In this document: in pieces, positions 18,770 through 64,000 of the stretch
Position numbering within the stretch: position 1 is the stretch's first letter
Layout of the letters: each line of letters starts with the position of its first letter
NCBI GenBank assembly: GCA_963674595.2
Contig: CAXXFV010000008.1
Span: 64,001 to 128,000, forward strand
DNA from: a bacterium
GTDB lineage: Bacteria > Zhuqueibacterota > Zhuqueibacteria > Residuimicrobiales > Krinioviventaceae
Length of the DNA stretch: 64,000 bases
Direction: 5' to 3'
The notes under the pieces: model-generated
What the model was told of the DNA's origin: nothing
The model's database searches: none
The model's input: the letters and a program-made list of their open reading frames with translations, nothing else
Made by a program: the position numbers and the translations under genes

Positions 18770-18789
18770 GTTAATCGTTTTCCTTATCC

Positions 18790-20654: not shown

Positions 20655-20707
20655 GTTTTCTCCTGAAAAATGGATGAATAAATGCATTTATTAATAAAAC
20701 ACAAGAT

Positions 20708-22336: not shown

Positions 22337-23140
22337 GTGATTATTTTGAATACTATTGGTGAAAAGTTTGAACGGCTTGTAGAAATTATGGCTATTTTAC
22401 GAAGTGAAAACGGATGTCCGTGGGACAGGGAACAAACCCATAAATCACTGAGGCAACATTTGCTTGAAGAGGCTTATGAAGTTATCGAAACTCTTGATGA
22501 AGAGAATTGGGAAGAGTTGCCTGTTGAATTGGGTGATTTACTGCTTCAGGTTATCTTTCATGCACAAATTGCCGATGAAGTGAATTCTTTTAATATTGGT
22601 GATGTAATTGATGCCATTAATAATAAATTGGAAAGAAGGCATCCACATGTTTTTGGTGATGTTGTTATCCGAACGGCTGAGGAACAGGTCGTTCATTGGG
22701 AAAATTCCAAAATAAAAAAAGAGGGTAAAAAGTCCGCTATTGATGGTGTTCCCAAGCAGTTGCCGGCCCTGGTACGTTCCTATCGAATGCAAAATAAAGC
22801 GGCCACAGTTGGATTTGATTGGGAAAAGATCGAATCTGTTTGGGACAAAGTAGATGAAGAAATGTCTGAATTAAAACAGGCAATTGATACCGGAAATAAA
22901 AATGATATTGAAGATGAACTGGGTGATTTGTTATTTTCTCTGGTAAATGTTTCCCGGTTTTTGCATGTCAATCCGGAGGATGCTCTGCGGCATACCATTG
23001 AAAAGTTTGACAGACGCTTTCGTCAGGTAGAATACGAGTTTAAATCAAACGGCAAATCTATAACCGATGCTTCTCTGGAAGAGATGGACAACGTGTGGGA
23101 AACAATAAAGCAGCAGGAAAAAAACTATTCAGAAAAATAG
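22337..23140 (+). CDS. mazG: Nucleoside triphosphate pyrophosphohydrolase MazG
   Basis: Motifs GCPWDREQT, EEAYE, ELGDLLLQV, RRHPHVF and a second ELGDLLF. Confidence 0.95.
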   Translation: MIILNTIGEKFERLVEIMAILRSENGCPWDREQTHKSLRQHLLEEAYEVIETLDEENWEELPVELGDLLLQVIFHAQIADEVNSFNIGDVIDAINNKLERRHPHVFGDVVIRTAEEQVVHWENSKIKKEGKKSAIDGVPKQLPALVRSYRMQNKAATVGFDWEKIESVWDKVDEEMSELKQAIDTGNKNDIEDELGDLLFSLVNVSRFLHVNPEDALRHTIEKFDRRFRQVEYEFKSNGKSITDASLEEMDNVWETIKQQEKNYSEK

Positions 23141-46168: not shown

Positions 46169-46174
46169 TTTAAA

Positions 46175-47623
46175 ATGAGTGAAAAATACGAACCGGTTAT
46201 AGGTCTTGAAGTACATATTCAGCTTTTAACAAAATCCAAAATTTTTTGTAATTGCAGTGCAGCCTTTGGTGCGGATCAAAACAGTCAGGTTTGCCCTGTG
46301 TGTTTGGGTTTACCAGGCGTTTTGCCTGTTTTAAATGAAAAGGTTGTAGAGTTTGCTACGCGATTGGCGTTGGCAACCAACAGTCGTATAAACAAACGTT
46401 CCATCTTTGCACGGAAAAATTATTTTTATCCGGATTTGCCCAAAGGCTACCAGATTTCGCAATTTGAAGAACCCTTTTGTGAACATGGCTTTGTAAAAAT
46501 AAACGTGGGTGATGAAACACGTAAAATTGGGCTTACACGAATCCATCTTGAAGAAGATGCCGGCAAGTCCATGCATTCGGAATCTTATGTTGCCAAAAAT
46601 GAAACATTGGTTGATATTAATCGTTGTGGTGTTCCTTTGCTGGAAATTGTAAGTGAACCTGAAATAAAAACTCCGGCAGAAGCTTATGCTTATTTGAACA
46701 GTTTACGGCAAATTGTCAGATACTTGGGAATTTGTGACGGCAATATGGAAGAAGGAAGTTTACGTTGTGACGCCAATATTTCCGTACGCCCGGTTGGTGC
46801 AACAACGCTGGGTACCAAAACTGAATTGAAAAACATGAATTCGTTTAGTGCTGTTGAAAAAGCACTCGAATATGAAATAAATCGACAGACGCAAATTGTT
46901 GAAAATGGCGGGAAAATTTTACAGGAAACATTGTTATGGGATGCAGATAACAATGTGGCTGAATCGATGCGAAGTAAAGAGTTTTCTCATGATTATCGCT
47001 ATTTCCCCGATCCTGATCTCGTGCCTGTAGTCATTAAGCAGGAATATATTGAGAACATACAAGCCCAAATGCCGGAGCTTCCGGCTGCAAAAAAACAACG
47101 TTATGTTGAGGAAATGAACATACCGGATTATGATGCCGGTGTTTTGACTGATGATCCCGAATTGGCCCAATATTTTGAAAATGTTGCTCAGCATGTTAAT
47201 GATAAAAAGTCTGCCAGCAACTGGGTGATGGGTGAGGTGTTACGCACCCTGAAAGAAGAGCAGTGCACAATAAGTGAAATGAATGTTACTCCCGAATATC
47301 TGGCGGAAATATTAACATCTGTGGATGAAGGTGTTATTACACGGAAAATGGGGCAAAAGGTTTTTAACCTTGTTCAGGAAACCGGTAAAACACCAAAAGT
47401 AATTATTAAAGAACAGGGGTTGGAACAAATTTCAGATACGTCTGAAATAGAATCAATTATTGAAAATATTCTCAATCAAAATGTTAAAGATGTTCAGGCT
47501 TATCAGGCCGGTAATAACAAAGTGTTTGGATTTTTTATGGGACAAGTTATGCGGGCTACCGGCGGCAAGGCTAATCCCAAAACAATTACAGAAATTTTAA
47601 AGAAAAAATTGGAATCAAAGTAA
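46175..47623 (+). CDS. gatB: Asp-tRNA(Asn)/Glu-tRNA(Gln) amidotransferase subunit B
   Basis: Motifs IGLEVH, RKNYFYPDLPKGYQISQ, HLEEDAGK and DYRYFPDPDL. Confidence 0.97.
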   Translation: MSEKYEPVIGLEVHIQLLTKSKIFCNCSAAFGADQNSQVCPVCLGLPGVLPVLNEKVVEFATRLALATNSRINKRSIFARKNYFYPDLPKGYQISQFEEPFCEHGFVKINVGDETRKIGLTRIHLEEDAGKSMHSESYVAKNETLVDINRCGVPLLEIVSEPEIKTPAEAYAYLNSLRQIVRYLGICDGNMEEGSLRCDANISVRPVGATTLGTKTELKNMNSFSAVEKALEYEINRQTQIVENGGKILQETLLWDADNNVAESMRSKEFSHDYRYFPDPDLVPVVIKQEYIENIQAQMPELPAAKKQRYVEEMNIPDYDAGVLTDDPELAQYFENVAQHVNDKKSASNWVMGEVLRTLKEEQCTISEMNVTPEYLAEILTSVDEGVITRKMGQKVFNLVQETGKTPKVIIKEQGLEQISDTSEIESIIENILNQNVKDVQAYQAGNNKVFGFFMGQVMRATGGKANPKTITEILKKKLESK

Positions 47624-47641
47624 AAAATAGAGGAAAAATAT

Positions 47642-48205
47642 ATGGCTTCAACATCCGATTTTCGGACAGGACTGATATTAATTATTGATAATGACCTTTT
47701 TTCAATTGTTGAATTTCAACATGTAAAAATGGGACGGGGCGGCGCTTTTGTTCGTACCAAATTGAAAAATGTAAAAACCGGGCGAGTGGTTGAAAAGACA
47801 TTTCGTGGTGGCGAAAAAGTCCAGGACGCACGTGTGGAACGTCGTCCGATGCAATTTCTTTATAAAGAAGGTGAATATTTTGTTTTAATGGATAGTGAAT
47901 CCTATGAACAAATGTCAATTCCTCAGGATTTGATACAATCCGGTTCCGAATTTTTAAAAGAGAGCGAAATAGTTGGTGTGCTCATGCATGGTGATACACC
48001 TATTGGTGTTGAAATGCCGAATTTTGTTAATTTACAAATTACTTCAACCGAACCAGGGTTAAAGGGTGATACGGTTTCCGGTTCTACAAAACCTGCTGTA
48101 TTGGAAACCGGTGGTGTTGTCCAGGTCCCACTTTTCATCGAAGAAGGAGAGATTATTCGTGTTGACACAAGGACTTCTACATATATAGAACGTGTCAAAG
48201 AATAA
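47642..48205 (+). CDS. efp: Elongation factor P (Arg32 type)
   Basis: Motifs FQHVKMGRGGAFVRTKLKN, EPGLKGDT, KPAVLETG and VPLFI. Confidence 0.96.
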   Translation: MASTSDFRTGLILIIDNDLFSIVEFQHVKMGRGGAFVRTKLKNVKTGRVVEKTFRGGEKVQDARVERRPMQFLYKEGEYFVLMDSESYEQMSIPQDLIQSGSEFLKESEIVGVLMHGDTPIGVEMPNFVNLQITSTEPGLKGDTVSGSTKPAVLETGGVVQVPLFIEEGEIIRVDTRTSTYIERVKE

Positions 48206-48262
48206 GTGATTGGATTTTTCTAAACCAACAGCCCTTTATTTATGAACTGATAAGGAGAAAGT

Positions 48263-48733
48263 ATGCGGGCAAAAAAAATTCAGGAACTCGTTAAAATTGT
48301 CGAAGAAAGTAATATCGGCGAATTGGAAATTACAAAATGGTGGGGACGTAAAATCAGGATCAGTAAAAGTTCATCGCCATCTCATGCTTCTTCACATATT
48401 ATGGTGCAAGCTCCACACGCGACTGAACAACAGGCTCAAAAACCCGCAGAGGTTGCTCCTGTTGCCAAACCAGAAGAAGCACCAAAAAATAATTATGTTG
48501 AGATAAAATCACCAATGGTCGGCACATTTTACCGAGCCCCTGCTCCGGATGCAGAACCTTATGTAAAAGAAGGTGACAAGATTTCTCCCGGAAAAGTAAT
48601 GTGTATTATTGAAGCTATGAAACTGATGAATGAAATTGAAGCTGAAGTGAACGGCAAGATTGTTAAAATCGTTGCTGAAAATGCACAACCGGTAGAATTT
48701 AATCAAACACTTTTCTTGGTCGAACCTGCATAA
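48263..48733 (+). CDS. accB: Acetyl-CoA carboxylase biotin carboxyl carrier protein
   Basis: SPMVGTFY and the biotin-lysine motif EAMKLMNEI. Confidence 0.95.
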
Positions 48734-48753
48734 AAAGGACTGATTTAATATAT

Positions 48754-50112
48754 ATGAAATTATTTAAAAAGATATTGATTGCCAATCGAGGTGAAATCGC
48801 TTTAAGAATAATTCGTGCCTGTAAAGAACTTGATATTGAAACAGTTGCCGTCTATAGTGAACCGGATGCTGACAGTTTACATGTGCGTTTTGCCGACGAA
48901 GCTGTTTGTATTGGTCCGGGACCCAGTCATCAAAGTTATTTGAATATTCCGCATTTGATAAGCGCTGCTGAAATTACAAATGCCGACGCTATCCATCCCG
49001 GCTATGGTTTTTTAGCTGAAAGCGCTCATTTTGCTGAAATATGTCATTCTTGTCATATACACTTTATCGGCCCCTCTGCCGAAGTCATTACACGTATGGG
49101 TGATAAAGCTTATGCCAAAGATACAATGAAAAAAGCCGGTGTTCCGGTTATTCCCGGTTCCGAGGGCATTCTTAAAGATGCAGAGCAGGCTGTTTTGTTG
49201 GCCGAAGAAATAGGATATCCCGTTATTATTAAGGCCTCTGCCGGTGGCGGCGGAAGAGGAATGCGGGTTGTGCGCAGCAAGGAGAATATGGAAAATGCTT
49301 TTAAAACAGCCAGTGCAGAATCTCAGGCTGCCTTTAATAATCCGGCTCTTTATATGGAAAAGTTCTTTGAAAGTCCGCGCCATATTGAACTTCAGCTCCT
49401 TGGTGATGATCATGGGAATGTTGTTTCTTTGGGAGAAAGAGAATGTTCAATCCAGAGGAAACATCAAAAATTAATCGAAGAATCGCCATCACCGGTGATA
49501 ACCGACAAGATTCGTGAAGAAATGAATGCTGTTGCCGTAAAAGGCGCTAAGCAAGTAAATTATAACAGTGCCGGTACCATCGAGTTTTTATTTGATAAGG
49601 GACAATTTTATTTTATGGAAATGAATACCCGAATTCAGGTAGAACACCCGGTGACAGAATCTGTTATTGGAATTGATCTGATCAAGGAACAGATACTTGT
49701 TGCTTGTGGTCATAAAATTTCTGAAAAAATTAAAGATTTTAAGTTACGCGGTCATTCTATCGAGTGCCGTATTAACGCAGAAGATCCGTTTAAGGATTTT
49801 CGTCCGTCACCCGGGAAAATTGTAAATTTTCATACTCCGGGCGGCCTGGGAGTACGTGTTGACACCCATGCGTATGACCAATACCAAATACCGCCGTACT
49901 ATGACTCTCTCATTGCTAAATTGATTACACATGGAAGAGATCGGGAAGAAGCAATTCGGAGAATGTTAAGATCATTGGATGAATTTGTTATCGAAGGTAT
50001 TGCTACAACAATTCCTTTGCATAAAAAGATTTTAAACCATGAAAAATTTAGAAGCGGTGATTTTAATACCAAATTTTTAGAAGATTTTGACTTTTCAAAA
50101 ATGGGAGAATAA
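48754..50112 (+). CDS. accC: Acetyl-CoA carboxylase biotin carboxylase
   Basis: Motifs [25 protein letters not shown] and [14 protein letters not shown]. Confidence 0.96.
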
Positions 50113-50114
50113 TT

Positions 50115-50492
50115 ATGCAAATTCCAGCCAATCTAAAGTATACAAAAGAACACGAATGGATTTCAGTTGAAGATGAAATTGCCACAGTCGGCATAACCGA
50201 TTATGCCCAGGGAGAACTGGGTGATTTGGTTTTTGTTGAATTACCGGAAACCGGTTCAACTGTTACCCAAATGGAAGCCTTTGGAACCATTGAAGCTGTT
50301 AAAGCTGTTTCTGATCTTTTTGCTCCTGTTTCCGGCGAGGTCGTGGAAGTTAATGAACAACTAAACGATACACCGGAAATTGTTAACAAAGACCCTTATG
50401 GTGAGGGTTGGATGATCAAGATAAAACTTGATAATCCGGATGAACTTGCAGAACTTTTGGATTCTGAAAGTTATAAAAAATTAATTTCCTAG
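50115..50492 (+). CDS. gcvH: Glycine cleavage system H protein
   Basis: Motifs YTKEHEW, GITDYAQ, the lipoyl motif EAVKAVS and DPYGEGW. Confidence 0.96.
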   Translation: MQIPANLKYTKEHEWISVEDEIATVGITDYAQGELGDLVFVELPETGSTVTQMEAFGTIEAVKAVSDLFAPVSGEVVEVNEQLNDTPEIVNKDPYGEGWMIKIKLDNPDELAELLDSESYKKLIS

Positions 50493-50508
50493 AGTTGGAG
50501 ACATAATA

Positions 50509-51852
50509 ATGACCTTTGTCCCACATACCGAAGCAGATAAAAACAAAATGCTTCAAAAAATCGGTGTAGAAAAGTTCGAAGACCTGTTGGAAAATATTTC
50601 TTCTGAATTATTGTACAATGGAGAATTGAACCTGCCGCCGGCAATGTCTGAAATGGAAGTGATGTCACATCTGAGAGAACTCGCTGCTGAAAATCAAAAT
50701 TGTGCTGATAATATTTGTTTTCTCGGCGGTGGTGCCTATGATCATTTTATTCCAGCGGCTGTAAAGCATATAACATCCAGATCAGAATTTTACACTGCTT
50801 ATACACCTTATCAACCCGAGGTAAGTCAGGGAACCTTACAAGCTATTTATGAATACCAAACAATGATTTGCGAATTGACCGGTATGGACGCTGCCAACGC
50901 CTCCATGTATGATGGTGGGTCTGCTTTAGCTGAAGCCGCCTTATTGGCTTGCGGACATACAAGAAGGCAGGAAATCATTGTTTCTTCTACTGTCCATCCT
51001 AATTACCGGGACATCATCCGAACATATTGTGTCGGTCGTAATATTGTTATTCATGAAATACCATTTGATAATGGTACAACAGATTTGAACAAGCTCAAAG
51101 AGATGGTTTCGGAAAAAACGGCTGCTGTCATCATTCAACACCCCAACTTTTTAGGCTGTCTTGAAGAAATGGATGATATTTCAGAATTAGTGCATCAATA
51201 TGGTGCATTGCTGATTACATCGAACGACCCTATTTCTTTAGCACTGTTAAAAAGTCCGGGAGAGTATAATGCGGATATTGTAACAGCCGAGGGCCAGGGT
51301 TTGGGTAATCCTATGAATTTCGGTGGCCCCTACCTTGGAATTTTTGCTGTAAAAAAGGAATTAATCCGCAAAATGCCCGGCCGTATTGTGGGTCAAACCA
51401 AAGACCTTAATGGCAAACGTGGTTTTGTATTGACGTTGCAAACACGTGAACAGCATATTCGCCGGGACAAAGCAACATCAAATATCTGTACAAATCAGGG
51501 ACTTATGGCCCTGGCAGCTACTGTATATTTGTCCTTAATAGGTAAAAATGGATTGAAACATATTGCTGAAATGTGTTTACAGAAAAGTCATTATTTGGCT
51601 GAAAATATTAACAAAATTGATGGCTTTGGCATAAAATTTGAAAAACCTTTCTTTAAAGAGTTCGTAATACAAACGAGCGACCCGACAGATGACATAATTA
51701 CAAACCTGGAAAAACGTAAAATTTTTGCAGGAATACCTTTGGAAAAGTATTATAAAGGTTTAAAAAACAACTTTCTGTGTGCCGTTACAGAAAAACGCAC
51801 AAAGAAGGAACTTGACTTTTTTATACAATCATTAAAGGAACTTATTAACTAA
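50509..51852 (+). CDS. gcvPA: Glycine dehydrogenase (decarboxylating) subunit 1
   Basis: Motifs YTAYTPYQPEVSQG, NASMYDG and TREQHIRRDKATSNICTNQ. Confidence 0.96.
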   Translation: MTFVPHTEADKNKMLQKIGVEKFEDLLENISSELLYNGELNLPPAMSEMEVMSHLRELAAENQNCADNICFLGGGAYDHFIPAAVKHITSRSEFYTAYTPYQPEVSQGTLQAIYEYQTMICELTGMDAANASMYDGGSALAEAALLACGHTRRQEIIVSSTVHPNYRDIIRTYCVGRNIVIHEIPFDNGTTDLNKLKEMVSEKTAAVIIQHPNFLGCLEEMDDISELVHQYGALLITSNDPISLALLKSPGEYNADIVTAEGQGLGNPMNFGGPYLGIFAVKKELIRKMPGRIVGQTKDLNGKRGFVLTLQTREQHIRRDKATSNICTNQGLMALAATVYLSLIGKNGLKHIAEMCLQKSHYLAENINKIDGFGIKFEKPFFKEFVIQTSDPTDDIITNLEKRKIFAGIPLEKYYKGLKNNFLCAVTEKRTKKELDFFIQSLKELIN

Positions 51853-52228: not shown

Positions 52229-53332
52229 ATGAAAAAATTATTAATTTCTGTTATAATGATAACAATGATGCTTGTTTCATTTACGCAGGTTTATGCAGTC
52301 AGTAATGCTGCGGTGCTCTTTTTAATGATTTCACCAGGAGCCCGAGCTGCAGGTATGGGTGAAGCATTTGTCGCGCTCGCCGATGATGCAACTGCAGTTT
52401 ACTGGAACCCGGCAGGATTGGCGTTTCAGGACCAGAGAGAAATATCATTGATGCATGCAAACTGGTTACCTCAGTTTGGTGCTGATTTGTTTTATGATTT
52501 TGGGTCCTATATTCATCCTGTTGAGGGTTTGGGAACTTTTGGTTTTAATGTTACCTATTTAAACCTTGGGGAACAGACAATCACAGATGAAACAGGCCCG
52601 GAAGCACTCGGTACGTTTAAAAGTTATGAATATGCCCTATCTGCCACATATGGAACATTACTAGCTGAAAACTGGGGTGTTGGCCTTGGATTGAGATATA
52701 TTCGTTCAAATTTGTCAAGTGTTGGTATCGGTACTGCTCAGGGTGACGGAAAAGCAAATGCCTTTGCATTTGATCTTTCCACATTGTACAAAACACCGTT
52801 TCTGCCTAATCTGAGTTTGGGCCTTAACTTGTCAAATATGGGTCCCAAGATTACATATATCGATGCTGCACAAGCTGATCCTTTACCGACAAATTTAAAA
52901 GTAGGTTTTGCTTATAAAATTGTAAATTCAAAATATAACAAACTTACTGTTACCGGCGATATGAACAAATTAATGGTAACACCGCATAAAGATGGACAGT
53001 CCGACCCATTTTATAAGGCACTTTTTACTTCGCCTTGGACGACTCCAGATTCTGAATTATCAACAGAAACAGATGAAGATGGTAATCAAATTAACAAACC
53101 CGGGAAAAAGATTTTTAACGGAACGTTGAGTGGAGGAGCTGAATATTGGTATAGCGATATGTTTGCTCTTCGTATTGGATACTATTGGGATAAACCAGGT
53201 AAAGTAAAATATACTTCTTTTGGTGCCGGTATCCAATATAGTCTCTATCGTTTTGATTTTGGCTATGTTTCAGCCGGAGAGGGACATCCCTTACAAGATA
53301 CCATGCGTTTTTCTTTGACAATTGGGTTATAA
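52229..53332 (+). CDS. porV: PorV-family outer-membrane beta-barrel
   Basis: Signal peptide. Motifs FLMISPGARAAGMGEA, DDATAVYWNPAGL, NLSNMGPKITY and DPLPTNLKVG. C-terminal RFSLTIGL strand. Confidence 0.88.
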   Translation: MKKLLISVIMITMMLVSFTQVYAVSNAAVLFLMISPGARAAGMGEAFVALADDATAVYWNPAGLAFQDQREISLMHANWLPQFGADLFYDFGSYIHPVEGLGTFGFNVTYLNLGEQTITDETGPEALGTFKSYEYALSATYGTLLAENWGVGLGLRYIRSNLSSVGIGTAQGDGKANAFAFDLSTLYKTPFLPNLSLGLNLSNMGPKITYIDAAQADPLPTNLKVGFAYKIVNSKYNKLTVTGDMNKLMVTPHKDGQSDPFYKALFTSPWTTPDSELSTETDEDGNQINKPGKKIFNGTLSGGAEYWYSDMFALRIGYYWDKPGKVKYTSFGAGIQYSLYRFDFGYVSAGEGHPLQDTMRFSLTIGL

Positions 53333-53343
53333 AAACCAAATTT

Positions 53344-53379
53344 TAACAGGCAATAAAATTGATTTTTTATTGCCTGTTA
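53344..53379 (+). terminator. Hairpin after porV (terminator or mRNA-stabilising element)
   Basis: Perfect 15-bp inverted repeat TAACAGGCAATAAAA/TTTTATTGCCTGTTA with a weak U-tract. Confidence 0.7.
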
Positions 53380-53426
53380 CATTTTAATTCATCTGTTGGA
53401 TTCATGTGTTCATTTTGGATTGATAC

Positions 53427-56400
53427 ATGCGAAAATTAGTATTACTAAGAATTTATGCTGTCCTGTTTGTATGTTTTGTACTAAAAGTTCAGATCAGCTA
53501 TTCCAAACCGACTATTCTGCCAAAAATGACAACGATTGATCCTTTAAATGTTGTCAGTACCTTTTCAGAAGGCGGATTCAAAGATATTTCAACTCCCGAT
53601 ACTCTTAAAATTATGGCTTTGAGAGCAGAGTTTGTTCAGGATGAATTAGCCACAACAACAGGTGATGGCAAGTTTGATTATTCTTCAGACAGTGATTATA
53701 TTATAGATCGTCCTCCTCACAATAAAGTTTATTTTCAAGATCAATTACTGGCTCTTTCTAATTATTTTAAGCATATTTCAAACGGAAAACTTGTTTTACA
53801 GGCTGATGTTTTTCCTGAAGCATCGGAGCAGGCTTATTTGTTAAATCAAAATATGGTCTATTATTCCGGTGAGGAAGATGAAGAACTTAAAAATACTAGA
53901 TGGTCTGAACTTGTGAGGGATGTTTGCGAAATTGCCAAAGAACAGGATGATCTTGATTTTGCGAAATATGATGTTTTTGTTGTTTTTCACGCCGGTATAG
54001 GAAGCGATTTTGCTTTTGACTTTGATCCCACTCCCTATGACATCCAGTCTGTTTTTCTCGATTTTCAAACTTTAAAAGAAACTTTGGGCCAAAATCAGAA
54101 TGATTACAATGGCATTGACCTTGGCTCCGGAGTCTTTGTCCGCGAGGCAATAATTCTTCCTGAAATGCAAAATCAGGAAGAATATGATCTTGGATTGCTG
54201 GGCACAATGACACTGTTAATGGGAAGTCAGCTTGGCATGCCCAATCTTTTTAATACTGAAAACGGACGTGCCGGTATCGGCCGGTGGGGACTTATGGACC
54301 AGGGTTCCTATAATTTTCAGGGACTTGTTCCGGCAGAACCCTGCGCCTGGATGAAGCTGTATATGGGATGGGATACAGCCGTAACTGTTAGCAATGGTGA
54401 ATTGAGTGTCGGCAGCAATGTCACAACATCTGCACCGCACATTTTGAAAATACCCATAACATCTGATGAATATTTTTTAATTGAAAACAGACAAAAAGAC
54501 AGTAATGGTGATGGCGTTGCTTTTGGCCGTGACCAGGCCGGAAATCGTGCACAGTTTGATACGACGGGAAATATTTTAATTGAACCAAACCTAGGTGTTA
54601 TTACGTCAGTCGATGAGTATGATTTTGGTTTGCCGGGTTCAGGTATTCTTATTTGGCATATTGATGAATCTGTTATCCGGCAGAATCTTGAAGCAAATAC
54701 GATAAATAATGATATTAATCACCGCGGTGTTGACCTGGTTGAATGTGATGGCGCCCAGGACATCGGGTATTATTACTCTATGCTGGACGCTGCCTATGGC
54801 ACTGAAAGCGGAGATTATTTTGATCCATATTGGTCAGGGAATTTTTTCTCATACAATCGTTAACGAATCTGAAACGGTGGCGTTTTCTTCCCAGACAATA
54901 CCCAATAGCCGCGCTTATAACGGTTCAGATACCCATATTCGTATTGAAAATTTTAGCGCCAGGGATTCGGTGATGAGTTTTTCACTTTCATCGGATTGGG
55001 CACAAAATGGGTTCCCGCAATACGCAGGAAAAAAGATTTGTCAGGGCGGTTTAAAAATTGCTAAAATGGGCCAGGAATCGGTTATAATTGCCGTTACTGT
55101 TGATGGAAATATACTCGGCTGGACAGCTACCGGTGAAAAGATCATTCCCAATGATTCTCAAATTTCAGTTGATAATATCAACAATCAATCAGAAAATTAT
55201 GACTGGGCTTTATTAAATACCTGTTCCGATTCCATTCTCGTTGCTCCTGTTATTGTCGATTTGGATAGTGATGGGACCGATGAAGTTATTGTTGTTACAA
55301 AATCCGGAACCTTGACAGCATTTCAACTTTTAGACGCAGATAGTGACGGGCGTGCTGATATTGTTTTTGAAAAGGCCCTGGAAATAAACCCGTCTGTTCA
55401 TCCAATGGTTTTACAATCTAATGAGAATACTAACGTTGTAATCGGTGCCAATGACGGTTCTGTACACGTTGTTTCCATAAATTTAGACCTTGAACCTGTT
55501 GTTAATAGTTTTTCTGTTGCACAAACAAACATTTCCGGACTGGCTGCAACGGTTGATGAATCCGCTTTTGTTACGGCTTCAGCTTCGGGTGATATTTCAA
55601 GTTATTTATTGGACGGTACTTTATTATGGAATCGTCAAGTATTGGGCAATGGTTCGGATTTTAATATTTGTTCTGTTCAGCTTTATTCAAAAAATCAGGT
55701 GTACTATATTTTCTCCAATACGGGTGAATTTTACATATTAAACTCTTTTGGTGAAATAATTCAAAACAAGGCAAATTTAAATATTGAAGCCGGAATTCCT
55801 GCTCTTGGTGATGTTAATAAGGACGGGTATCCTGAGGTTTTGTTTAATACTAAAGGCCAACTTTGGGCCGTGTCAAATACCGGGATAACGTCTGCAAATT
55901 TCCCTGTCGATATTGATGAAGCGGTGGAACAATTTGCGGTACCGCCCTTGTTTATGCATGGTAAAAATAAAATTGCTTCAATTTGTTTTGCCGCCAACAG
56001 CAGCGGTCAAATAACCGCTGTTGATCAGGACGCCCGAAAATGTGATGGGTTCCCGTTAAGTGTTGGGCAGCAAATAAACGCCTCTCCATTGGTTGCGGAT
56101 ATTGATAAAGACGGAGATGTTGAGCTGGTTGCCATATCACAGGACGGATTTTTGTATTTATGGGACCTGGATTATTCAGCAGATGATTACGACATGATCT
56201 GGCCGCAATTTGGCGGGCGAACAGGACGTAATTTGTTCAACTATAAAAGCGATCTTGAACCTGTTGGTCAGGATAAAACAGGTGGTTTGCTGCCGTCTGA
56301 AAGTACGTTTTGCTACCCCAATCCTGCGGAAAACAATCGTACAAATATTCGTTATCTTTTAACATCCGATGCTGTTCGGGTGACTATAAAAATTTACGAT

Positions 56401-56571
56401 CTTGCCGGTGATCTGGTTAAAGAAATTGAGGCATCCGGAATAACTGCCGGAGAGCACGATGTTACATGGGATGTATCAGACATTCAAAGTGGTGCTTATA
56501 TCGCCAAAGTTGAAGCAGAAAATGAATCTGAAAAAAGTTATAAAATTATAAAAATCGCGGTGGTCAAGTAA
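53427..56571 (+). CDS. M6 (immune inhibitor A)-like pseudoprotease with FG-GAP-like repeats and T9SS-type C-terminal sorting domain, 1-nt frameshift at 54842-54847
   Basis: M6 landmarks VFHAG, LGMPNL, WGLMDQGS, CAWMKLYMGW, EYFLIENRQ and GILIWHIDE. Repeats DLDSDGTDE, GDVNKDGYPE and ADIDKDGDVE. CTD CYPNP...IYDLAG...SGAYI...KIAVVK. Removing one T joins both ORFs into about 1047 aa. Confidence 0.8.
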
Positions 56572-56577
56572 CAATAT

Positions 56578-59500
56578 ATGAAAAAGTTAAAACTTATATT
56601 AATTTTTGGGATTATATTTAATTTTAATCAGGTTTTTTCACAAATTTTACCAGAATATACACATCCTGAACTGGACTGGTATACAATTCAAACCGAACAT
56701 TTCAAGGTGCATTACCATAATGGAGCAGAACGCACAGCCAGGATTGTCGCCAAAATAGCTGAAGACATTTATGCTCCCGTTACCACGATGTATGACTGGG
56801 AACCGGATGGTATTGTTCATTTTATTATCAAAGATTATGAAGATAATTCCAACGGCGGCGCTTTTTATTATGATAATAAAGTTGAAATCTGGGCGCCGCA
56901 AATGACTTTTATTTTACGCGGAACCAATGATTGGCTGCGCAACGTAGTAACACATGAATTTTCACATATGATATCTCTGGGAGCTGCCCGTAAACTGCCG
57001 CGTAAAATTCCGGCTTTTTATATGCAAATGATCGGCTATGAGGAAGAAAAACGTCCGGATGTTTTATACGGATATCCGAACATTATCGCTTCCTATCCTT
57101 TACCCATGACCGTTATACCTATGTGGCTTGCCGAAGGAATGGCCCAGTTTCAGGTGCCGGGACTTGATTATGATCGTTGGGACAGTCACCGTGATATGCT
57201 TATGCGAACGGCTGTGTTAAACAAAGAACTACACAGTTTTACCGAAATGGGTGTTTTTGGTAAAAACAGTCTTGGTAATGAGAGAACCTATAATTCCGGA
57301 TATGCATTTGTGCGGTATATCGCCCATAATTATGGTGCTGAATCGATTCCGGCTTTTTCAAAAGAATTAAGTAAATTTTTTCATTTCGGCATCAATGGTG
57401 CCTTAAAAAATGTAACAGGTTTTAGTGGAACCGAGCTTTACGGACAGTGGTGCAAACAGATTACGGAATATTATACAAAACGAGTTGAAAAAATTCGTGA
57501 ACATGAAATAAGCGGAGAAAACATTACACCCAAAGGCATTGGAAATGTTTATCCTAAATGGTCACCTGATGGGAAAACACTGGCTTTTTGCGGCAGTGAG
57601 TCACAACAATATTTAAGCTTTACGAATTTAAAATTATACAACCTTGAAAAAAAGAAATTTGATAAAATTAAAATCGGTGTAAACAGTCAGCTTGCCTGGG
57701 ATGCTAAAGGCAATCAACTTTATTATGTTAAAAGAAAAGAAAACAAAAACCACTCTAATTTTTTTGATCTCTATAAATATGATTTGACTGGGAAAAAAGA
57801 GAAAAAGTTGACATCCTCGTTGCGGAGTGTGGACCCGGATTGGTCTGCTGAACTGCGGCAATTTGTTTGTGTTGTGCAAAAAGATGGAACAGATAATCTG
57901 GTTGTTTTGGATGAAAACGGTGATAAAGTAAAAAATCTGACAAATTATAAAAACAGCCAGGGTGTTTATTCTCCGCGATGGTCTAAAGACGGACAGTTTA
58001 TTGTATTTTCCCAATCAAGAAAACATGGCCGGGACATAAAAAAAATAAATGTCGAAACCGGAGAAATTTTTAATCTTATCAATGATCAAAATGATGCACG
58101 TGATCCGGTGATCAGCCCGGATGGAAAACGCATATATTTCTCCTGGGACCGTACAGGTATTTTCAATATCTATAGTATGGATATGAATGGGCAGGACATA
58201 AAATTGTGGACAAATGTCACCGGCGGCGCCTTTATGCCGGATGTATCTGTTGACGGAACATTAGCCTATTCCAATTTTAAACATGACGGTTATAAAGTTA
58301 ATATTCTTGAAAATCCTGTTGAAATTGATCAACGTTTGGCTGAATATGTGAATGCCTCGGATATCGCACCTGAACTGCAAAATATAAAATTGGCCGAATT
58401 ACCGGAGAACCTGAAATCAGTAACGAATTATAATGATTTTACGACACCATCTTATGATACCACAAAATATGGTATGGAATACAGTCAGGTCAGTTTTTAT
58501 CCGCGAGTTATGGTTGATTCAAATCAGGTAAAACTTGGGTCCTATTTTTTTATGGGTGATATCCTCGATAAATACAATGTGTTTGGTGGTGCGGCTGTTA
58601 ATTCCCGTAAAGATATTGATGTATTTACTTCATTTCGTTATAATAAACTGGGTCCGTCGTTATTTTTGGAGCTATACGGGTTTACCAGAAATATTGAACA
58701 AAGTATTGAAGTGATTGAAAATTATAAAAAAGCACCCGTTGATATTCGGTTTTCAATTTTAGAAGCCTATTTGGGTTCGGATTTTTATATTAATAAATCC
58801 AACGGTCTTAAAATTTCATTGTCCCACCATCGTTCCACCAGTAAAATTAAAGACTTTTTCTTTCAAGGCGTGACATGGCGTTCGCCTTCAAATACTTATT
58901 TTGTCGGCAACCATGTTTCATTCCAGTATACCCTGGATCAATTACCGGGCTTACCTTATCCTGTAACGAACAGAACAGCAGGACGTTATTTAACCTTTAC
59001 ATATACCCGTGAATTTAACAAGTTTTTTGAGGACTTTGCCACCGATAATGAATATAATTCCCCACAGGAAGTATATACGGATTATAATTATAACAGGTTT
59101 GAACTGGAATGGCGGGAATATTTACCGGTTCCCTGGCATCATCACCATTCGTTTGCCATGAACCTTCACGCCGGAGTTGTTGACCGTTCCGTAGACAGTT
59201 TTTTTAACTTTTTTGCCGGTGGAATGCCGGGACTTCGCGGGTATCCGTTTTACAGTATTGAAGGACGGAAAATGCTGGTAGGAAGATTTACCTATCGTTT
59301 TCCGATTTTCGATCAAATGCAAAAATCTTTTTTACAATTTACAACAGACAAACTTTATCTCGGTGCTTTTTTCGATTATGGTAATGCGTTTGATAAAGAT
59401 TTTTCTTTTTCGGATTTTAAAAAGGATGCCGGTCTCAGTTTGCGTTTTTCAGCATTTTCATTTTTTGGAATGCCGACAGCATTCCAGTTTGAGTCGGCTT

Positions 59501-59589
59501 ACGGATTTGACAAAGTTACCAATGAGGGCCAAATTTATGGTGAAGAATGGCGACATTATGTAACGTTGTTGTTTGATTTTATTGATTAA
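56578..59589 (+). CDS. Peptidase-MA-like / PD40 beta-propeller / Omp85-type beta-barrel protein
   Basis: Signal peptide. Gluzincin motifs THEFSH and WLAEG. PD40 repeats PKWSPDGK, PRWSKDG and PVISPDGK. Omp85 barrel motifs GLRGY and FFDYGNAF, with a C-terminal aromatic strand. Confidence 0.78.
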   Translation: MKKLKLILIFGIIFNFNQVFSQILPEYTHPELDWYTIQTEHFKVHYHNGAERTARIVAKIAEDIYAPVTTMYDWEPDGIVHFIIKDYEDNSNGGAFYYDNKVEIWAPQMTFILRGTNDWLRNVVTHEFSHMISLGAARKLPRKIPAFYMQMIGYEEEKRPDVLYGYPNIIASYPLPMTVIPMWLAEGMAQFQVPGLDYDRWDSHRDMLMRTAVLNKELHSFTEMGVFGKNSLGNERTYNSGYAFVRYIAHNYGAESIPAFSKELSKFFHFGINGALKNVTGFSGTELYGQWCKQITEYYTKRVEKIREHEISGENITPKGIGNVYPKWSPDGKTLAFCGSESQQYLSFTNLKLYNLEKKKFDKIKIGVNSQLAWDAKGNQLYYVKRKENKNHSNFFDLYKYDLTGKKEKKLTSSLRSVDPDWSAELRQFVCVVQKDGTDNLVVLDENGDKVKNLTNYKNSQGVYSPRWSKDGQFIVFSQSRKHGRDIKKINVETGEIFNLINDQNDARDPVISPDGKRIYFSWDRTGIFNIYSMDMNGQDIKLWTNVTGGAFMPDVSVDGTLAYSNFKHDGYKVNILENPVEIDQRLAEYVNASDIAPELQNIKLAELPENLKSVTNYNDFTTPSYDTTKYGMEYSQVSFYPRVMVDSNQVKLGSYFFMGDILDKYNVFGGAAVNSRKDIDVFTSFRYNKLGPSLFLELYGFTRNIEQSIEVIENYKKAPVDIRFSILEAYLGSDFYINKSNGLKISLSHHRSTSKIKDFFFQGVTWRSPSNTYFVGNHVSFQYTLDQLPGLPYPVTNRTAGRYLTFTYTREFNKFFEDFATDNEYNSPQEVYTDYNYNRFELEWREYLPVPWHHHHSFAMNLHAGVVDRSVDSFFNFFAGGMPGLRGYPFYSIEGRKMLVGRFTYRFPIFDQMQKSFLQFTTDKLYLGAFFDYGNAFDKDFSFSDFKKDAGLSLRFSAFSFFGMPTAFQFESAYGFDKVTNEGQIYGEEWRHYVTLLFDFID

Positions 59590-59611
59590 CGTTGATAGAT
59601 GGGAGTAAACT

Positions 59612-60427
59612 GTGCGTTATTTAACTTTTATTTTTATTCTGGTTTTTTCTCTGGCCAATAAACCGTTTGCACAAGATAACAAGTGGCAGGAATTTATGTT
59701 GGCAGGGGCAAAGTATGATGTTAACAGTATGTCCACGAATGAATCGCAAAATTTGTCCGGAATGGAGAAAAAATCAATTAAAAAACCTGCACTAATGTCA
59801 GTTGTTGTTCCGGGTGCCGGGCAAGTTTATAACGGATCTTATTATAAAGGCCTGGGTTTTCTTGCTATTGAAGCCGTATCGTGGACGATGTATATCACCT
59901 ACAATAATGAGGGAAATGATATAGAAGACGAGTTCCATGGTTATGCCAATACCCATTGGAGTGAACAAGATTACTGGAAATATGTTGCCCATCATAGCGG
60001 TATTGAATATACCGGTACCACTGAAAATATTGAAGCTTTGCGTGTTGAAGAAGGCAAATTATTCAGTCATGGTTTGCATCGGGAGAAAGACCAGCAATAT
60101 TACGAAATGATCGGCAAGTATGATCAGTTTAACTATGGATGGGATGATTATGATAAGGATTTAATTGGTAAAACAGTTAAAGAAATGCAATCACTACGCT
60201 CATCAAAACGGTTATATTATGAAGGACGGCGGGATGACAGTAACCAGGCTTTTAAAAAAGCGACAACAGGTGCCACAATAGCCCTGTTTAATCACATTTT
60301 CAGTGCCCTGGAAGCTGCCTGGAGTGTTAATAAATATAACAAAACGATAACTGCTCAAATGAATATGGAACCATTACATTTTAATAATCAATATTGTTCG
60401 GCCTTAACATTACGAATGACATGGTAA
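59612..60427 (+). CDS. DUF5683-like exported/membrane protein, paralogue 1
   Basis: Signal peptide. Motifs ALMSVVVPGAGQVYNG, QQYYEMIGKYDQF and NHIFSALEAAWSV. Ends in the beta-strand LTLRMTW. Confidence 0.72.
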   Translation: MRYLTFIFILVFSLANKPFAQDNKWQEFMLAGAKYDVNSMSTNESQNLSGMEKKSIKKPALMSVVVPGAGQVYNGSYYKGLGFLAIEAVSWTMYITYNNEGNDIEDEFHGYANTHWSEQDYWKYVAHHSGIEYTGTTENIEALRVEEGKLFSHGLHREKDQQYYEMIGKYDQFNYGWDDYDKDLIGKTVKEMQSLRSSKRLYYEGRRDDSNQAFKKATTGATIALFNHIFSALEAAWSVNKYNKTITAQMNMEPLHFNNQYCSALTLRMTW

Positions 60428-60432
60428 CTTTT

Positions 60433-61176
60433 ATGAAAGCTTTACAGTTTATTACTCTTTTGATCTTTGTCAATGTATGTTTGCTTTTCGCAGCAAGTCC
60501 GCAAAAGGTAAAATTGTCTTATCTGCCTAAAACAATATATACATCGGGATTTTCTTTAAATAATTCTCAACCTAAAAATATAGAGATAAATAAACCACTT
60601 ACAAAATCCAAGGGTAAAGCCTTTCTGCTTTCTTTAGTCGTTCCGGGTTTGGGTGAACATTATGCACAGGCATCTCATAAAACAAAATATTTTTTAGCTT
60701 CTGAAGCATTATTATGGTTGTCCTATGGGGGATTTGTGACATATAAGGATTGGAAAGAGGAAGATTATAGGACCTATGCCGCTTCTCATGCTCAGGTTGA
60801 TTTGGATGGAAAATCAAGCTCATATTTTATTGATGTGGGCAATTATGATAATATTGATGATTATAATGCGGAACAATTGAGGAACCGAAATTTACCAAAA
60901 TATTATTATGATACGGAAACCTATTACTGGAACTGGGAAAATGAAGCGCATCGCCAAAAATTTGATGATTTACGCATAGCCGCCGACACGGCACACAACC
61001 GGTCTCAATTTGTAATCGGCGCTATTATTGCCAATCATTTAATTAGTGCTATTGACGCTGTATGGTCTGTTTATAAATTTAACAAAACAAGTCAGGCAAA
61101 TATTGATTGTGATATAAAATTCGGTGATGGGATCATACAACCACATTTGAATATTCAGCTAACAGCCCATTTTTAA
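60433..61176 (+). CDS. DUF5683-like exported/membrane protein, paralogue 2
   Basis: Start at ATG 60433 gives a signal peptide. Motifs AFLLSLVVPGLGEHY, YFIDVGNYD and NHLISAIDAVWSV. Ends in NIQLTAHF. Confidence 0.72.
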   Translation: MKALQFITLLIFVNVCLLFAASPQKVKLSYLPKTIYTSGFSLNNSQPKNIEINKPLTKSKGKAFLLSLVVPGLGEHYAQASHKTKYFLASEALLWLSYGGFVTYKDWKEEDYRTYAASHAQVDLDGKSSSYFIDVGNYDNIDDYNAEQLRNRNLPKYYYDTETYYWNWENEAHRQKFDDLRIAADTAHNRSQFVIGAIIANHLISAIDAVWSVYKFNKTSQANIDCDIKFGDGIIQPHLNIQLTAHF

Positions 61177-61252: not shown

Positions 61253-64000
61253 TCAAACCCTCGGTGTATAAAATTCTTCGTTCAATACTATCGTATAATA
61301 AAGTCCGTTTTTGCTTTCATAATTTAGGGTGCCGTGTAATTGATATTCTACAAGATCGAAAATTGTACGAATACCAATACCCTTTTGAGTGGCAAAATCA
61401 AAATCGTCCGGCAAGCCAACGCCGTTATCTGAAATGTTTAAAATTATTTCATTTTTGGGAGAGCGAATTAGTTTTATATCAATTTTTGCATCATATCCTG
61501 GTGGGAATGCATATTTGACGGAATTGGTTATAATCTCATTTATTAAAATGCCAACCGGCATTGCCGTATCAAGCAATACGTTGATATCTTGTCCCTCAAA
61601 ATTAATTGCGATTCTGGAAGAATCAATAATATTGCTTTCTTGTAATAATTCTACAAGGCCTCTGATATACTCTTTTAAATTCAGATGTGACAAGTCCTTT
61701 GTTTCATAAAGTTTCTGATGAACAAGGGCCATTGCAAGAATTTTATTTTCAATTTCTTTAAACTTTATCTTAAATTTTTCATCATCAATCGTACGGGATT
61801 GTAGCCGAAGCATGGACGAAATAACCTGCATATTATTTTTTGTTCGATGATAAAGTTCACGAATTAGTACTTCTTTTTCTTTCAAATCATGCTGTATTTG
61901 TTTTTCAGCAATTTTAATTTCACTTATATCATGAAAAGTACCTTGTACGCGTGTATAAATTCCATTTTCCTTAATAGGATTTCCTTGAATTCTACACCAT
62001 ATTAAATTATTTTTTGCGGTTCTAAATTCAAGTTCAAGATCAAATGGTACACCAACTTTGGATGCGAATTTATGTGCCTGCTCTAATTGTTTATTGTAGG
62101 GCTCGGGAAAATGTGATAAATATTGGTCAACGGTAGGTGGTTCCTGATCAAATCCGATTTCAAATATTTCATAGAGTGCCCGGGTCCATATAGCTTTACC
62201 TGTCTCAAAATTATACTCCCACCCGCCTATTTTTGCAATAGAACCTGTTCTGTTTAATATTTCTTCACTTTTTCTCAATGCCTCTTGTGTCCGTTTCTGG
62301 CTTACAATCTCCCATGTTAAATCAATATATTTTGAAACCAATTCTGCTTCTTTATCCGAGTAATTTTCCTTTCCATTACCAATATGGACAATTGCTACGA
62401 CATTATTTTTTCTTATAATCGGTACAACCAACTCACGATGAATATCAAAATCGTCTTTGCAAAACGGAATATTTTCAGACTTGTTTGGTTGTGAGTTTTG
62501 AATGATTGGTTTTTGCTGATTCACACATGCTTGCCATGTTGATTTATCTTCAAGTTTGAAGACATGGGATTGATCACAAAACCTAATAGATTGTGAGGGA
62601 ATTTTGCTGTAATATTGTTCCAGAGTCATCGATATTTGATCTGAATTTATAAAACAATAAAAGCCAATGGAACTTTTTGTAAGCAAACTGATTTCTCGAA
62701 GGACCTTGAGCAACACGTTTTGAAGTGTATGTTCAACGGCATAAGATGCCAGGGCTAATCTTTCATCCGTTAACCATCGTTCTTTATATTCTTCACTTTG
62801 GTCTCTAAATACCAGCACAACACCAATTATTTCATTTTTTTCATTTCTAATCGGAGCACCGCTGTCCGCTATGGGTATTTCTTGATTATCTTTTGTAACA
62901 AGCAGTGTATGATTCCCAAGTCCGACAACAATTCCGTTATTAATTACTTTTGTTACAGGAGATTCAATAGGCTTTCTGGTTTTTGCACTAATGATATGAA
63001 ATACATAATCTAATGGTTTACCGATAGCTTTGTATTCTTTCCAACCTGTCAATTCTTCAGCAACAGGATTCATTAATTCAATATTACCTTTGGCATCGGT
63101 TGAAATAACGGCATCACCAATCGAATGCAGGGTAACTGAATGTTTTTCCATATTTTCCCTGAGGGCTGTTTCTGACCGATAAAGTTCCTGATAATATGTG
63201 CTTAAATTGCGTTGTTGAAGTACTTTAGCGACGACCATAATAAAACCGACAGCTACGAACATTATAACTAGTATCAGGACAGAGATAAAATGCCAATTTG
63301 CAAGTGCTTCTTTTTCATCAATTTTGACTATGAGGTACCACGGTGTATGTGAAACCGGTTGAATAGCTGCGATGACTTTTTCTTCCCGATAGTCCAAACC
63401 GGAAATGACGCCGGTTGCACCATGAATTGCTTTTACAGCCAAATGATTGGTCTGATTAACAGGAATTCTTAAACGCATCGCCGTGTTTTTTATGTGCCGC
63501 AATTCATTTAAAAACAGAACATCATTACCCTCTTTTTTTATTAAAATTGTTTCCGCCGATTTGTTGGGTGTCGGCCAGAACTTGAGAATCGGGTCGAGAT
63601 ATTCAGAGGCGTCATTAATTAGTATTACCAAGCCAATTACATTTTGTTTTTCATTAACTATTGGTGCAATGGCGCCTACAAATGTTTTCCCCGGAAATTT
63701 ATCAAGCAGAAAAAAGTCTATAAAAATTGATGTACCATTTAACAGGGCAAACCTTATTGTATCTTCGAATGCCTGATATACCTGATCAACCTCACCAATA
63801 TTTAATTCAAGATTGCCGTTTTTATTGATGAGACCTATACTAAAATAGTCATGTTGTTGCTTAATTGAATGAAAAAGCGAAGACAGTTCTTGATCAGGCT
63901 GCAATCGAGGATTGGCGTTAATATGCTGTATTTTATTTGTTAAAAATTTGATTTTGCTAATCAGTTCTGCATCAATTTCCTGATCTTTTTTCCAGGAAGA
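61253..64000 (-). CDS. Multi-sensor histidine kinase (Cache-like, TM, PAS, GAF, PAS, HisKA_2, HATPase), 5'-truncated by the window edge
   Basis: Frame is open to base 64000. Motifs SIGDAVISTD, MNPVAEELTGW, IGGWEY, ELYHRTKNNMQVISSML, NEIITNSVKYAF and SDNGVG. Confidence 0.9.
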   Translation of the reverse strand, partial: SSWKKDQEIDAELISKIKFLTNKIQHINANPRLQPDQELSSLFHSIKQQHDYFSIGLINKNGNLELNIGEVDQVYQAFEDTIRFALLNGTSIFIDFFLLDKFPGKTFVGAIAPIVNEKQNVIGLVILINDASEYLDPILKFWPTPNKSAETILIKKEGNDVLFLNELRHIKNTAMRLRIPVNQTNHLAVKAIHGATGVISGLDYREEKVIAAIQPVSHTPWYLIVKIDEKEALANWHFISVLILVIMFVAVGFIMVVAKVLQQRNLSTYYQELYRSETALRENMEKHSVTLHSIGDAVISTDAKGNIELMNPVAEELTGWKEYKAIGKPLDYVFHIISAKTRKPIESPVTKVINNGIVVGLGNHTLLVTKDNQEIPIADSGAPIRNEKNEIIGVVLVFRDQSEEYKERWLTDERLALASYAVEHTLQNVLLKVLREISLLTKSSIGFYCFINSDQISMTLEQYYSKIPSQSIRFCDQSHVFKLEDKSTWQACVNQQKPIIQNSQPNKSENIPFCKDDFDIHRELVVPIIRKNNVVAIVHIGNGKENYSDKEAELVSKYIDLTWEIVSQKRTQEALRKSEEILNRTGSIAKIGGWEYNFETGKAIWTRALYEIFEIGFDQEPPTVDQYLSHFPEPYNKQLEQAHKFASKVGVPFDLELEFRTAKNNLIWCRIQGNPIKENGIYTRVQGTFHDISEIKIAEKQIQHDLKEKEVLIRELYHRTKNNMQVISSMLRLQSRTIDDEKFKIKFKEIENKILAMALVHQKLYETKDLSHLNLKEYIRGLVELLQESNIIDSSRIAINFEGQDINVLLDTAMPVGILINEIITNSVKYAFPPGYDAKIDIKLIRSPKNEIILNISDNGVGLPDDFDFATQKGIGIRTIFDLVEYQLHGTLNYESKNGLYYTIVLNEEFYTPRV

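Follow-up and report, generated by a model that had tools for sequence, protein, structure and literature searches.

Five co-oriented genes at positions 52229-61176 on the + strand of a 64,000-nucleotide (nt) stretch of bacterial DNA (the window; all coordinates of its features are positions within it) are the distal section of the canonical porU-porV operon, which belongs to the system for type IX secretion (T9SS), and not a separate system. The reading that we prefer, and to which we give a probability of roughly 0.6, is that the ancient operon porU-porV-M6i-PepOmp-DUF5683-like belongs with the canonical T9SS in branches of the Fibrobacteres-Chlorobi-Bacteroidetes (FCB) group outside the Bacteroidia. 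In the lineage of the window, which is of the KSB1 type, porU would have been relocated and the DUF5683-like gene duplicated. M6i here denotes an M6-like inactivated metalloprotease, and PepOmp a protein in which a peptidase and a propeller precede a putative Omp85-type barrel. The open reading frames (ORFs), with their lengths in amino acids (aa) and the evidence for each assignment, are as follows.

52229-53332, + strand: PorV-family outer-membrane barrel, 367 aa (NF033709, NF033710 and PF19572 scores)
53427-54863, + strand: N-terminal part of M6i, first frame, 478 aa (NF052323, 383.9 bits; TIGR03296, E 4.8e-20)
54842-54847, + strand: T6 homopolymer, the frame change in the M6i gene (sequence and alignment with single-ORF homologues)
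54847-56571, + strand: C-terminal part of M6i, second frame (ORF 54709-56571, 620 aa; NF052323, 199.1 bits; TIGR04183; FG-GAP_3)
56578-59589, + strand: PepOmp, 1003 aa (profiles, AlphaFold2 model, motif conservation)
59612-60427, + strand: DUF5683-like a, 271 aa, GTG start (PF18935)
60433-61176, + strand: DUF5683-like b, 247 aa from the ATG (PF18935; paralogy with copy a)

The gaps between the genes are 94, 6, 22 and 5 nt, the last of them with the ATG at 60433 adopted as the start of DUF5683-like b, for which the ORF list has a TTG at 60394. All five translations have a signal-peptide-like hydrophobic N-terminus, as read from the translations themselves and without a predictor. The original prediction, made from the DNA letters, had described five co-oriented exported proteins with this spacing, and the ORFs, their strand and their gaps bear it out. 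It had also remarked that porU, sprA and porKLMN are missing from the window, and indeed no further T9SS gene (porU, sprA or gldKLMN-type) was found among the 47 of its ORFs that were compared with NCBIfam, nine of them again with Pfam.

The first line of evidence for a single module is the constancy of its gene order, which had been put forward as one test of the prediction and which holds from KSB1 to Ignavibacteria. When species-representative genomes were scanned for PepOmp, 556 out of 584 candidate stretches were confirmed, and at least 556 species-level genomes encode it; the best 80 loci were kept and their ORFs searched with the window proteins, the counts below referring to loci with room, where the contig reaches far enough. 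The record titles of the 80 loci name KSB1, Caldithrix, Zixibacteria, LCP-89, Fidelibacterota, Kryptonia, Ignavibacteria and metagenome-assembled genomes labelled "Bacteroidota", and the order PorV, M6i, PepOmp, DUF5683-like is kept in all of them wherever the contig allows. The fit of the label "non-Bacteroidota" in the prediction depends on the taxonomy, many of the relatives being genomes of the Ignavibacteria/Kryptonia type and several records bearing the name Bacteroidota. M6i is the immediate upstream neighbour of PepOmp in 71 of 71 loci, and PorV is found on the upstream side in 69 of 69. Downstream, the script detects a DUF5683-like gene in 69 of 72 loci; the remaining three have a split anchor and do carry the gene. 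Two copies of it occur in 27 of 67 loci, and the median spacings between neighbours in the related loci are 29-56 nt. A FastTree phylogeny of 73 PepOmp sequences falls into two groups, a 39-row clade of Ignavibacteria and Kryptonia, in which every locus has one DUF5683-like gene, and the KSB1, Caldithrix, Zixibacteria and LCP-89 rows, which have two copies; the window PepOmp sits in a seven-row clade, starred in the tree, whose named rows are mostly labelled KSB1. That the tree follows the lineage labels points to vertical inheritance.

The second line of evidence comes from what lies next to these genes in relatives. Directly upstream of porV, porU is found in 40 of 57 loci with room, and seven more have partial copies at contig edges, recognised by homology. 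Outside the KSB1/Caldithrix group, most loci carry an ORF of about 1330 aa directly upstream of PorV, and all seven such ORFs tested are PorU sortases (NF033707, 675-1008 bits; cut-off 420). Six loci carry sprA/sov no more than 10 kb downstream of the cluster (L022 at 16456-22734, L024, L033, L043, L047 and L074), the SprA of L022 scoring 1032 bits with TIGR04189. In KSB1-type genomes, the window included, the linkage to porU is lost: gcvH-gcvPA occupies the place of porU before porV in the lineage of the window, and gcvH, with or without gcvPA, directly precedes porV in loci of the KSB1/Caldithrix type. It is because porU adjoins porV in so many loci, and SprA is encoded nearby in the six, that we do not regard the cluster as a system of its own. 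The prediction was thus right to suspect a T9SS-related module, as the type A C-terminal sorting domain (CTD) of M6i also indicates; its reading of an undescribed system, or of an alternative route of surface-protein biogenesis, finds no support, and the M6i family is already curated under a name that refers to the T9SS (NF052323). In its strongest form, that of an independent system for secretion or assembly that substitutes for the T9SS, the idea could draw on the lack of porU, sprA and gldKLMN-type genes in the window; a 64-kb window is silent on the rest of the genome, however, and together with the T9SS sorting domain on M6i and the neighbouring porU and SprA genes of related loci this makes such a system extremely improbable.

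The identity of the first two products ties the cluster to the T9SS in another way. Gene 1 encodes a PorV-family barrel, as had been proposed, with 313.3 bits for NF033709 (the PorV/PorQ family; cut-off 90) and 115.1 bits for Pfam PF19572 (cut-off 27). Gene 2 matches the family that NCBI has named "T9SS-dependent M6-like inactivated metalloprotease" (NF052323): its two halves match profile positions 36-492 and 509-1043 of 1043, and their bits sum to 583, the cut-off being 600. Intact orthologues from KSB1-type and related loci likewise score just under that cut-off (536-593 bits), and an Ignavibacteria-type orthologue (L040) reaches 986.6 bits. The match of the M6 domain to TIGR03296 is below the cut-off of that model; in the C-terminal half, FG-GAP_3 scores 34.3 bits against 26.9, and the type A sorting domain, at residues 536-615 of the 620-aa ORF (about 56314-56553), is recognised by both TIGR04183 (39.1 bits against 23) and Pfam Por_Secre_tail (41.5 bits against 27). 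The catalytic Glu of the zinc motif is absent in all 14 aligned sequences, the window protein and 13 homologues, and in the window protein both His of the motif are lost as well (degenerate motif at 54213-54236). A sequence search of the N-terminal half against the PDB gave no match at E <= 1, and NCBIfam gave no PorZ match for M6i at E <= 0.01. The picture of a dead M6-fold protein with FG-GAP repeats and a sorting domain is therefore upheld in its content; the assumption of one ORF is not, as the gene is frameshifted.

The frameshift needs an explanation. The M6i gene consists of two ORFs in different frames, 53427-54863 and 54709-56571; the first ends at a stop at 54861-54863, and in the alignment with the 13 single-ORF homologues the frame changes at the T6 run. 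We read it as most likely a homopolymer error of assembly, because the site is a homopolymer and the housekeeping gene purB is split likewise in the same window (40326-41620, + strand; 40326-40781 covers profile positions 1-133 and 40709-41620 positions 132-435, the break lying near an A5 run at about 40701-40705). We take the purB break to be an error of the same kind, which suggests that this assembly contains indel errors. Taken at face value, the two frames and the early stop would mean that M6i is a pseudogene and the cluster is decaying in this organism; given that both halves are still open and conserved, and that splits at other positions occur in five other assembly-derived loci (L015, L024, L056, L064 and L069), we consider genuine decay decidedly improbable. 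We also reject programmed frameshifting at the T6 run: in the homologues the gene is one ORF and a conserved slippery site is lacking, and purB is split too.

The third gene, PepOmp, is the most unusual member of the cluster. Its order is putative signal peptide, zinc peptidase, propeller, linker and barrel, and the three domains are placed as follows.

About 56665-57507, + strand: MA-clan zinc peptidase (HExxH at 56953-56967; Glu ligand within 57124-57147)
About 57535-58308, + strand: TolB-like PD40 propeller (PD40 and TolB profiles, fold search)
About 58489-59586, + strand: predicted 16-strand Omp85-type barrel (loop-6 RGY motif at 59230-59247; FxDxGNA motif at 59368-59391)

The peptidase appears intact throughout the family: all 23 sequences have, without variation, H126, E127 and H130 of the HExxH motif (residues 126-130) as well as E186, and all 23 also match Peptidase_MA_2 (PF13485) and PD40 at E <= 0.01. 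The propeller resembles that of TolB, both by profile against the PDB (E 3.7e-32) and by fold search (E 1.3e-9), and no POTRA family is among the Pfam matches of the 23 members. The AlphaFold2 model (pLDDT 81.8, pTM 0.80) has a helical peptidase domain, the propeller, a 60-residue linker and 16 long strands (residues 638-999). Used as a query against the PDB, the full model was uninformative on barrel and peptidase, TolB and WD40 propellers filling the list. Profiles were more telling: the family profile matches the TamA barrel with E 4.9e-4 and a profile of the C-terminal part alone with E 1.5e-3, and the alignment of the latter covers both the GG..RGY loop and the strand with FxDxGNA, the conserved GLRGYP (885-890) and FFDYGNAF (931-938) of PepOmp being aligned to the same segments of TamA. 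The GG..RGY or (V/I)RG(F/Y) motif of loop 6 and the FxDxG motif are hallmarks of Omp85 proteins. The model has the RGY loop between strands 11 and 12, presumably the same place as loop 6 of Omp85 proteins. Pfam Omp85 (PF01103) matches 6 of the 23 members, with a best E of 1.1e-7. The TamA matches, the aligned motifs, the 16 predicted strands and these Pfam matches support the assignment of the C-terminus as an Omp85-type barrel without POTRA domains, and the prediction of such a barrel, behind an intact HExxH peptidase and a PD40 propeller in place of POTRA domains, has held up well.

PepOmp is a widespread protein with poor names. Among 8000 candidates scored, 1883 are full-length relatives, the best 120 at 43-60% identity, and its profile matches 6033 cluster representatives at E <= 1e-30, propeller-only matches included. 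Public names of its homologues are generic or misleading, "biopolymer transporter Tol" and "PD40 domain-containing protein" among them, and others are called "BamA/TamA family outer membrane protein" or "peptidase MA family metallohydrolase". A kinship of M6i and PepOmp as pseudoenzyme and enzyme paralogues was tried and discarded: the best BLASTP match between their MA-clan domains has E 0.24 and covers signal peptides only.

The last two genes had been called two paralogous DUF5683-like proteins. They are 27% identical and share the same invariant residues, and both match PF18935 near its cut-off of 26.7 bits: copy a exceeds it with 30.8 bits (profile positions 2-59 of 151 only), and copy b falls just short, at 25.3 bits (positions 4-110 of 151). 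AlphaFold2 models copy a (pLDDT 85.9) as a helical protein, two of whose helices are very long, with a beta hairpin at the C-terminus; this model finds no fold match in the PDB at E <= 0.001. In the alignment, 33 of the 34 sequences have F or W as their final residue, behind the predicted hairpin; to judge from the alignment and the model, this ending resembles an outer-membrane beta-signal. The DUF5683-like proteins have clusters of DUF5683 as their Atlas neighbours, with the family assigned to 35-40% of the members, and the Atlas searches returned nothing beyond the query proteins' own families. A complex prediction for the PepOmp barrel (residues 580-1003) with copy a scored 0.00 against a mark of 0.32; made without controls, it speaks neither for nor against binding.

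Some variation around these genes deserves a record of its own. PepOmp and DUF5683-like a both have Gln next after the likely cleavage site of the signal peptide (regions 56578-56650 and 59612-59680), and the PepOmp family consensus at this site is Ala-Gln; both proteins fit the "Q-rule" for exported proteins of Bacteroidetes, by which Gln follows the cleavage site. Fifteen related loci have an extra gene between M6i and PepOmp, where the gaps are 650-1400 nt; the window has none. Coordinates, in the numbering of each locus, were obtained for five of these inserts, and apart from Big_5 all family matches mentioned are under their cut-offs.

L007, 8561-9877: distant PorV/PorQ-like protein, 41 bits
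L012, 9259-9957: small outer-membrane beta-barrel protein
L018, 9343-9987: ORF similar-looking to that of L012, with no family match
L022 (Ignavibacteria-type), 8988-9647: lipoprotein with FlgD-Ig-like or CarboxypepD_reg-like matches
L038, 8580-9977: Big_5 protein

The others are in L020, whose ORF also looks similar to that of L012, and in L021, L028, L029, L037, L042, L049, L060, L008 and L065. By eye, several loci have ORFs similar to the lipoprotein of L022; L008 and L065 have inserts with no apparent relation to these.

On the preferred reading, the products of the operon would work together at the outer membrane. PorV would be the receptor and shuttle for CTDs, and M6i would be a T9SS cargo that is kept on the surface by its uncleaved CTD, bound to PorV, and serves as a non-catalytic binding platform. 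We suggest this for M6i because it is enzymatically dead, bears a propeller and a CTD and is encoded right after porV, and because of the analogy with the CTD-mediated retention of PorU and PorZ: in Porphyromonas gingivalis, as a T9SS review describes it, PorU and PorZ are attached to PorV and PorQ by CTDs that are not cleaved off (PMC10202324). PepOmp would reside in the outer membrane, its peptidase and propeller replacing the POTRA domains. The position of the RGY loop between strands 11 and 12 of the model fits the usual Omp85 topology, and so the periplasmic face is the somewhat better guess for the side on which peptidase and propeller lie. There, the propeller would gate the zinc site such that only unfolded chains or peptides are cut; propeller-capped peptidases usually admit nothing else. 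A propeller-capped peptidase at the outer membrane leads us to favour, though at clearly less than even odds, a gated protease for clearance or quality control, and we tentatively liken its role to that of BepA, with T9SS cargo or outer-membrane components as possible clients. The DUF5683-like proteins would be small membrane partners, whose C-terminal beta hairpin with its aromatic end may dock on the PepOmp barrel. From all this, and from this only, we infer that the function of the module is T9SS-linked processing or quality control at the outer membrane.

Several observations weigh against this reading. The gene for the sortase is not adjacent in the window, nor in 17 of the 57 loci, and the sortase link is therefore not obligatory at the level of gene order. 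Some scores of the window proteins fall short: PorV is just below the cut-off of the PorV equivalog NF033710 (240.2 bits against 250), PepOmp is below that of Peptidase_MA_2 (29.9 bits against 32.4), and PepOmp of the window, taken alone, has no Pfam Omp85 match (PF01103) at E <= 0.01; M6i is frameshifted and, were that genuine, the module would be damaged in this organism. As to NF033710, orthologues directly after porU miss the same cut-off (239.6 bits in L040, 225.3 in L032), and it seems that the threshold is tuned to Bacteroidia. More generally, no tool showed any interaction among the module proteins. Finally, PF26549 and PF26550, found as precomputed matches on nearly every PepOmp homologue, may be newer Pfam entries that already describe parts of the protein.

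Other roles for PepOmp can be imagined and draw on much the same observations. With its Omp85-type barrel and TamA-like motifs, it could be an assembly factor that inserts or proofreads SprA, PorV or the DUF5683-like proteins, the propeller serving as a dock and the peptidase clearing stalled substrates, in effect a fused analogue of BamA and BepA. The beta-signal-like hairpin of the DUF5683-like proteins, with its final F or W, would make them natural clients, the gene shares an operon with PorV and, in six loci, a neighbourhood with SprA, and an analogy with BepA and the beta-barrel assembly machine (BAM) can be drawn. To our knowledge, however, the known Omp85 insertases need POTRA domains, of which PepOmp has none; we consider insertion unlikely, while noting that it overlaps with our preferred explanation and does not exclude it. 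The succession of N-terminal enzyme, 60-residue linker and 16-strand barrel also recalls the patatin-POTRA-Omp85 proteins, in which case the barrel would, as in type Vd autotransporters, export its own peptidase-propeller to the surface, to act on T9SS cargo or environmental proteins beside M6i, itself predicted to be surface-exposed because of its CTD. Neither Pfam nor the AlphaFold2 model places a POTRA domain between passenger and barrel, though, and the model, with its pTM of 0.80, packs the N-terminal domains on one face or the other of the barrel. The MA-clan domains of M6i and PepOmp also lack detectable similarity, and we regard autotransport as a quite unlikely course.

A different objection is that the operon may be one of convenience. 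The three downstream genes could form an independent unit for peptide processing or uptake at the outer membrane, which shares the operon with porV for co-expression only and takes no mechanistic part in the T9SS; no tool showed an interaction, the linkage to porU is lost in the 17 loci, and the inserts between M6i and PepOmp vary. It is difficult to see, however, why PorV and M6i should then have kept their places beside PepOmp without exception across very deep lineages, with tight spacing between neighbours and a PepOmp tree congruent with the lineage labels, and an independent unit strikes us as improbable. The preferred module could, conversely, reach deeper than we propose. PepOmp and the DUF5683-like proteins may be an unrecognised core of the ancestral T9SS attachment and processing machine, together with PorU, PorV and M6i and in the place of the PorQ and PorZ of Bacteroidia; this we hold to be doubtful, and if true, it would be the first link between the Omp85 and type IX machineries.

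The surroundings of the cluster in the window are as follows. Upstream, 44732-51852 holds the housekeeping genes gatA, gatB, efp, accB, accC, gcvH and gcvPA; downstream, a PAS/GAF histidine kinase is encoded on the minus strand (61253-63904), convergent with the cluster. One non-coding feature stands within it.

53344-53379, no strand assigned: hairpin between porV and the M6i gene (94-nt gap), with a perfect 15-bp stem and, on either strand, a T-rich tail

The hairpin may be a partial terminator or attenuator that sets the expression of PorV above that of the downstream genes. Terminator-like sites across the region are not commoner than in shuffled sequences (8 against 8.4), the scan of the region for promoters and terminators was overall not above shuffles, and Rfam gave no match over the whole window. 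Farther away, the glycine-cleavage genes are apart, gcvPB (29264-30715) lying about 20 kb from gcvH-gcvPA (50115-51852). The start of the window (1-3177, + strand) looks like a beta-lysine osmolyte cluster, with ablA (lysine 2,3-aminomutase), which is cut by the window start, a sodium/solute symporter and an ORF resembling ablB (beta-lysine N-acetyltransferase); the last spans only profile positions 2-164 of 266 and may be truncated or frameshifted.

What is understood of type IX secretion comes almost wholly from Bacteroidia, and against that background three to four extra outer-membrane genes are here joined to porU-porV in Ignavibacteria, Kryptonia, KSB1, Calditrichota, Zixibacteria, Fidelibacterota and LCP-89. 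If the module acts with the sortase complex, the parts list of the T9SS and the picture of its evolution would change, and the Omp85 superfamily would gain a new functional class. If it has no role with the sortase, the cluster remains a clean marker operon all the same and puts right a widespread misannotation of PepOmp homologues. Full-text literature searches returned no paper on the operon, on PepOmp or on the function of DUF5683, and the NCBIfam scan no model for PepOmp or for the DUF5683-like subfamily.

Among known systems, the closest is the PorU-PorV-PorQ-PorZ attachment complex of P. gingivalis, with which the cluster shares a PorV-family barrel that is encoded beside the sortase gene in most related loci. 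The cluster lacks PorQ, except for the distant PorV/PorQ-like insert of L007, and the complex has no counterpart of PepOmp or the DUF5683-like proteins. M6i is comparable with PorZ in being a large, non-catalytic, propeller-bearing CTD protein by PorV, and the retained CTD of PorZ binds a PorV-family barrel according to the same review (PMC10202324); it differs in consisting of a dead M6 domain and FG-GAP repeats. In the whole text of that review, from 2023, a term search finds no mention of Omp85, BamA or metalloprotease (PMC10202324). With NF052323 the two window halves agree end to end, the differences being the frameshift of the window gene and scores just under the cut-off, as in its intact orthologues from KSB1-type and related loci. 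The DUF5683-like proteins share the N-terminal S..PG.GQ.Y hairpin region with Pfam DUF5683, to which PG0140 of P. gingivalis belongs, a protein listed in a table as detected in outer-membrane vesicles (PMC13744359, table entry only); their middle domain and C-terminal hairpin are particular to the operon-linked subfamily.

For PepOmp, the comparison is with the Omp85 superfamily (BamA, TamA, TpsB and PlpD) and with BepA. The likeness to the former lies in the predicted 16 strands, in the loop-6 and FxDxGNA motifs that align with TamA and in the Pfam Omp85 matches of some members; the difference lies in the missing POTRA domains and in an N-terminus made of a gluzincin peptidase with an intact site and a TolB-like propeller. 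We know of no described Omp85 protein with this combination of peptidase and propeller, and the literature searches found none with such an architecture. BepA of Escherichia coli, like PepOmp, is a zinc metalloprotease placed at an Omp85 machine, the BAM complex, and, by analogy only, suggests quality control of outer-membrane substrates. BepA is, however, a separate M48 protease with TPR repeats, whereas the peptidase of PepOmp is of the Peptidase_MA_2 family, fused to its barrel and capped by a propeller. Set against what has been described, PorV and M6i are of known kinds, and what is new in the cluster is the peptidase-propeller-Omp85 architecture and an unexplained family of small proteins.

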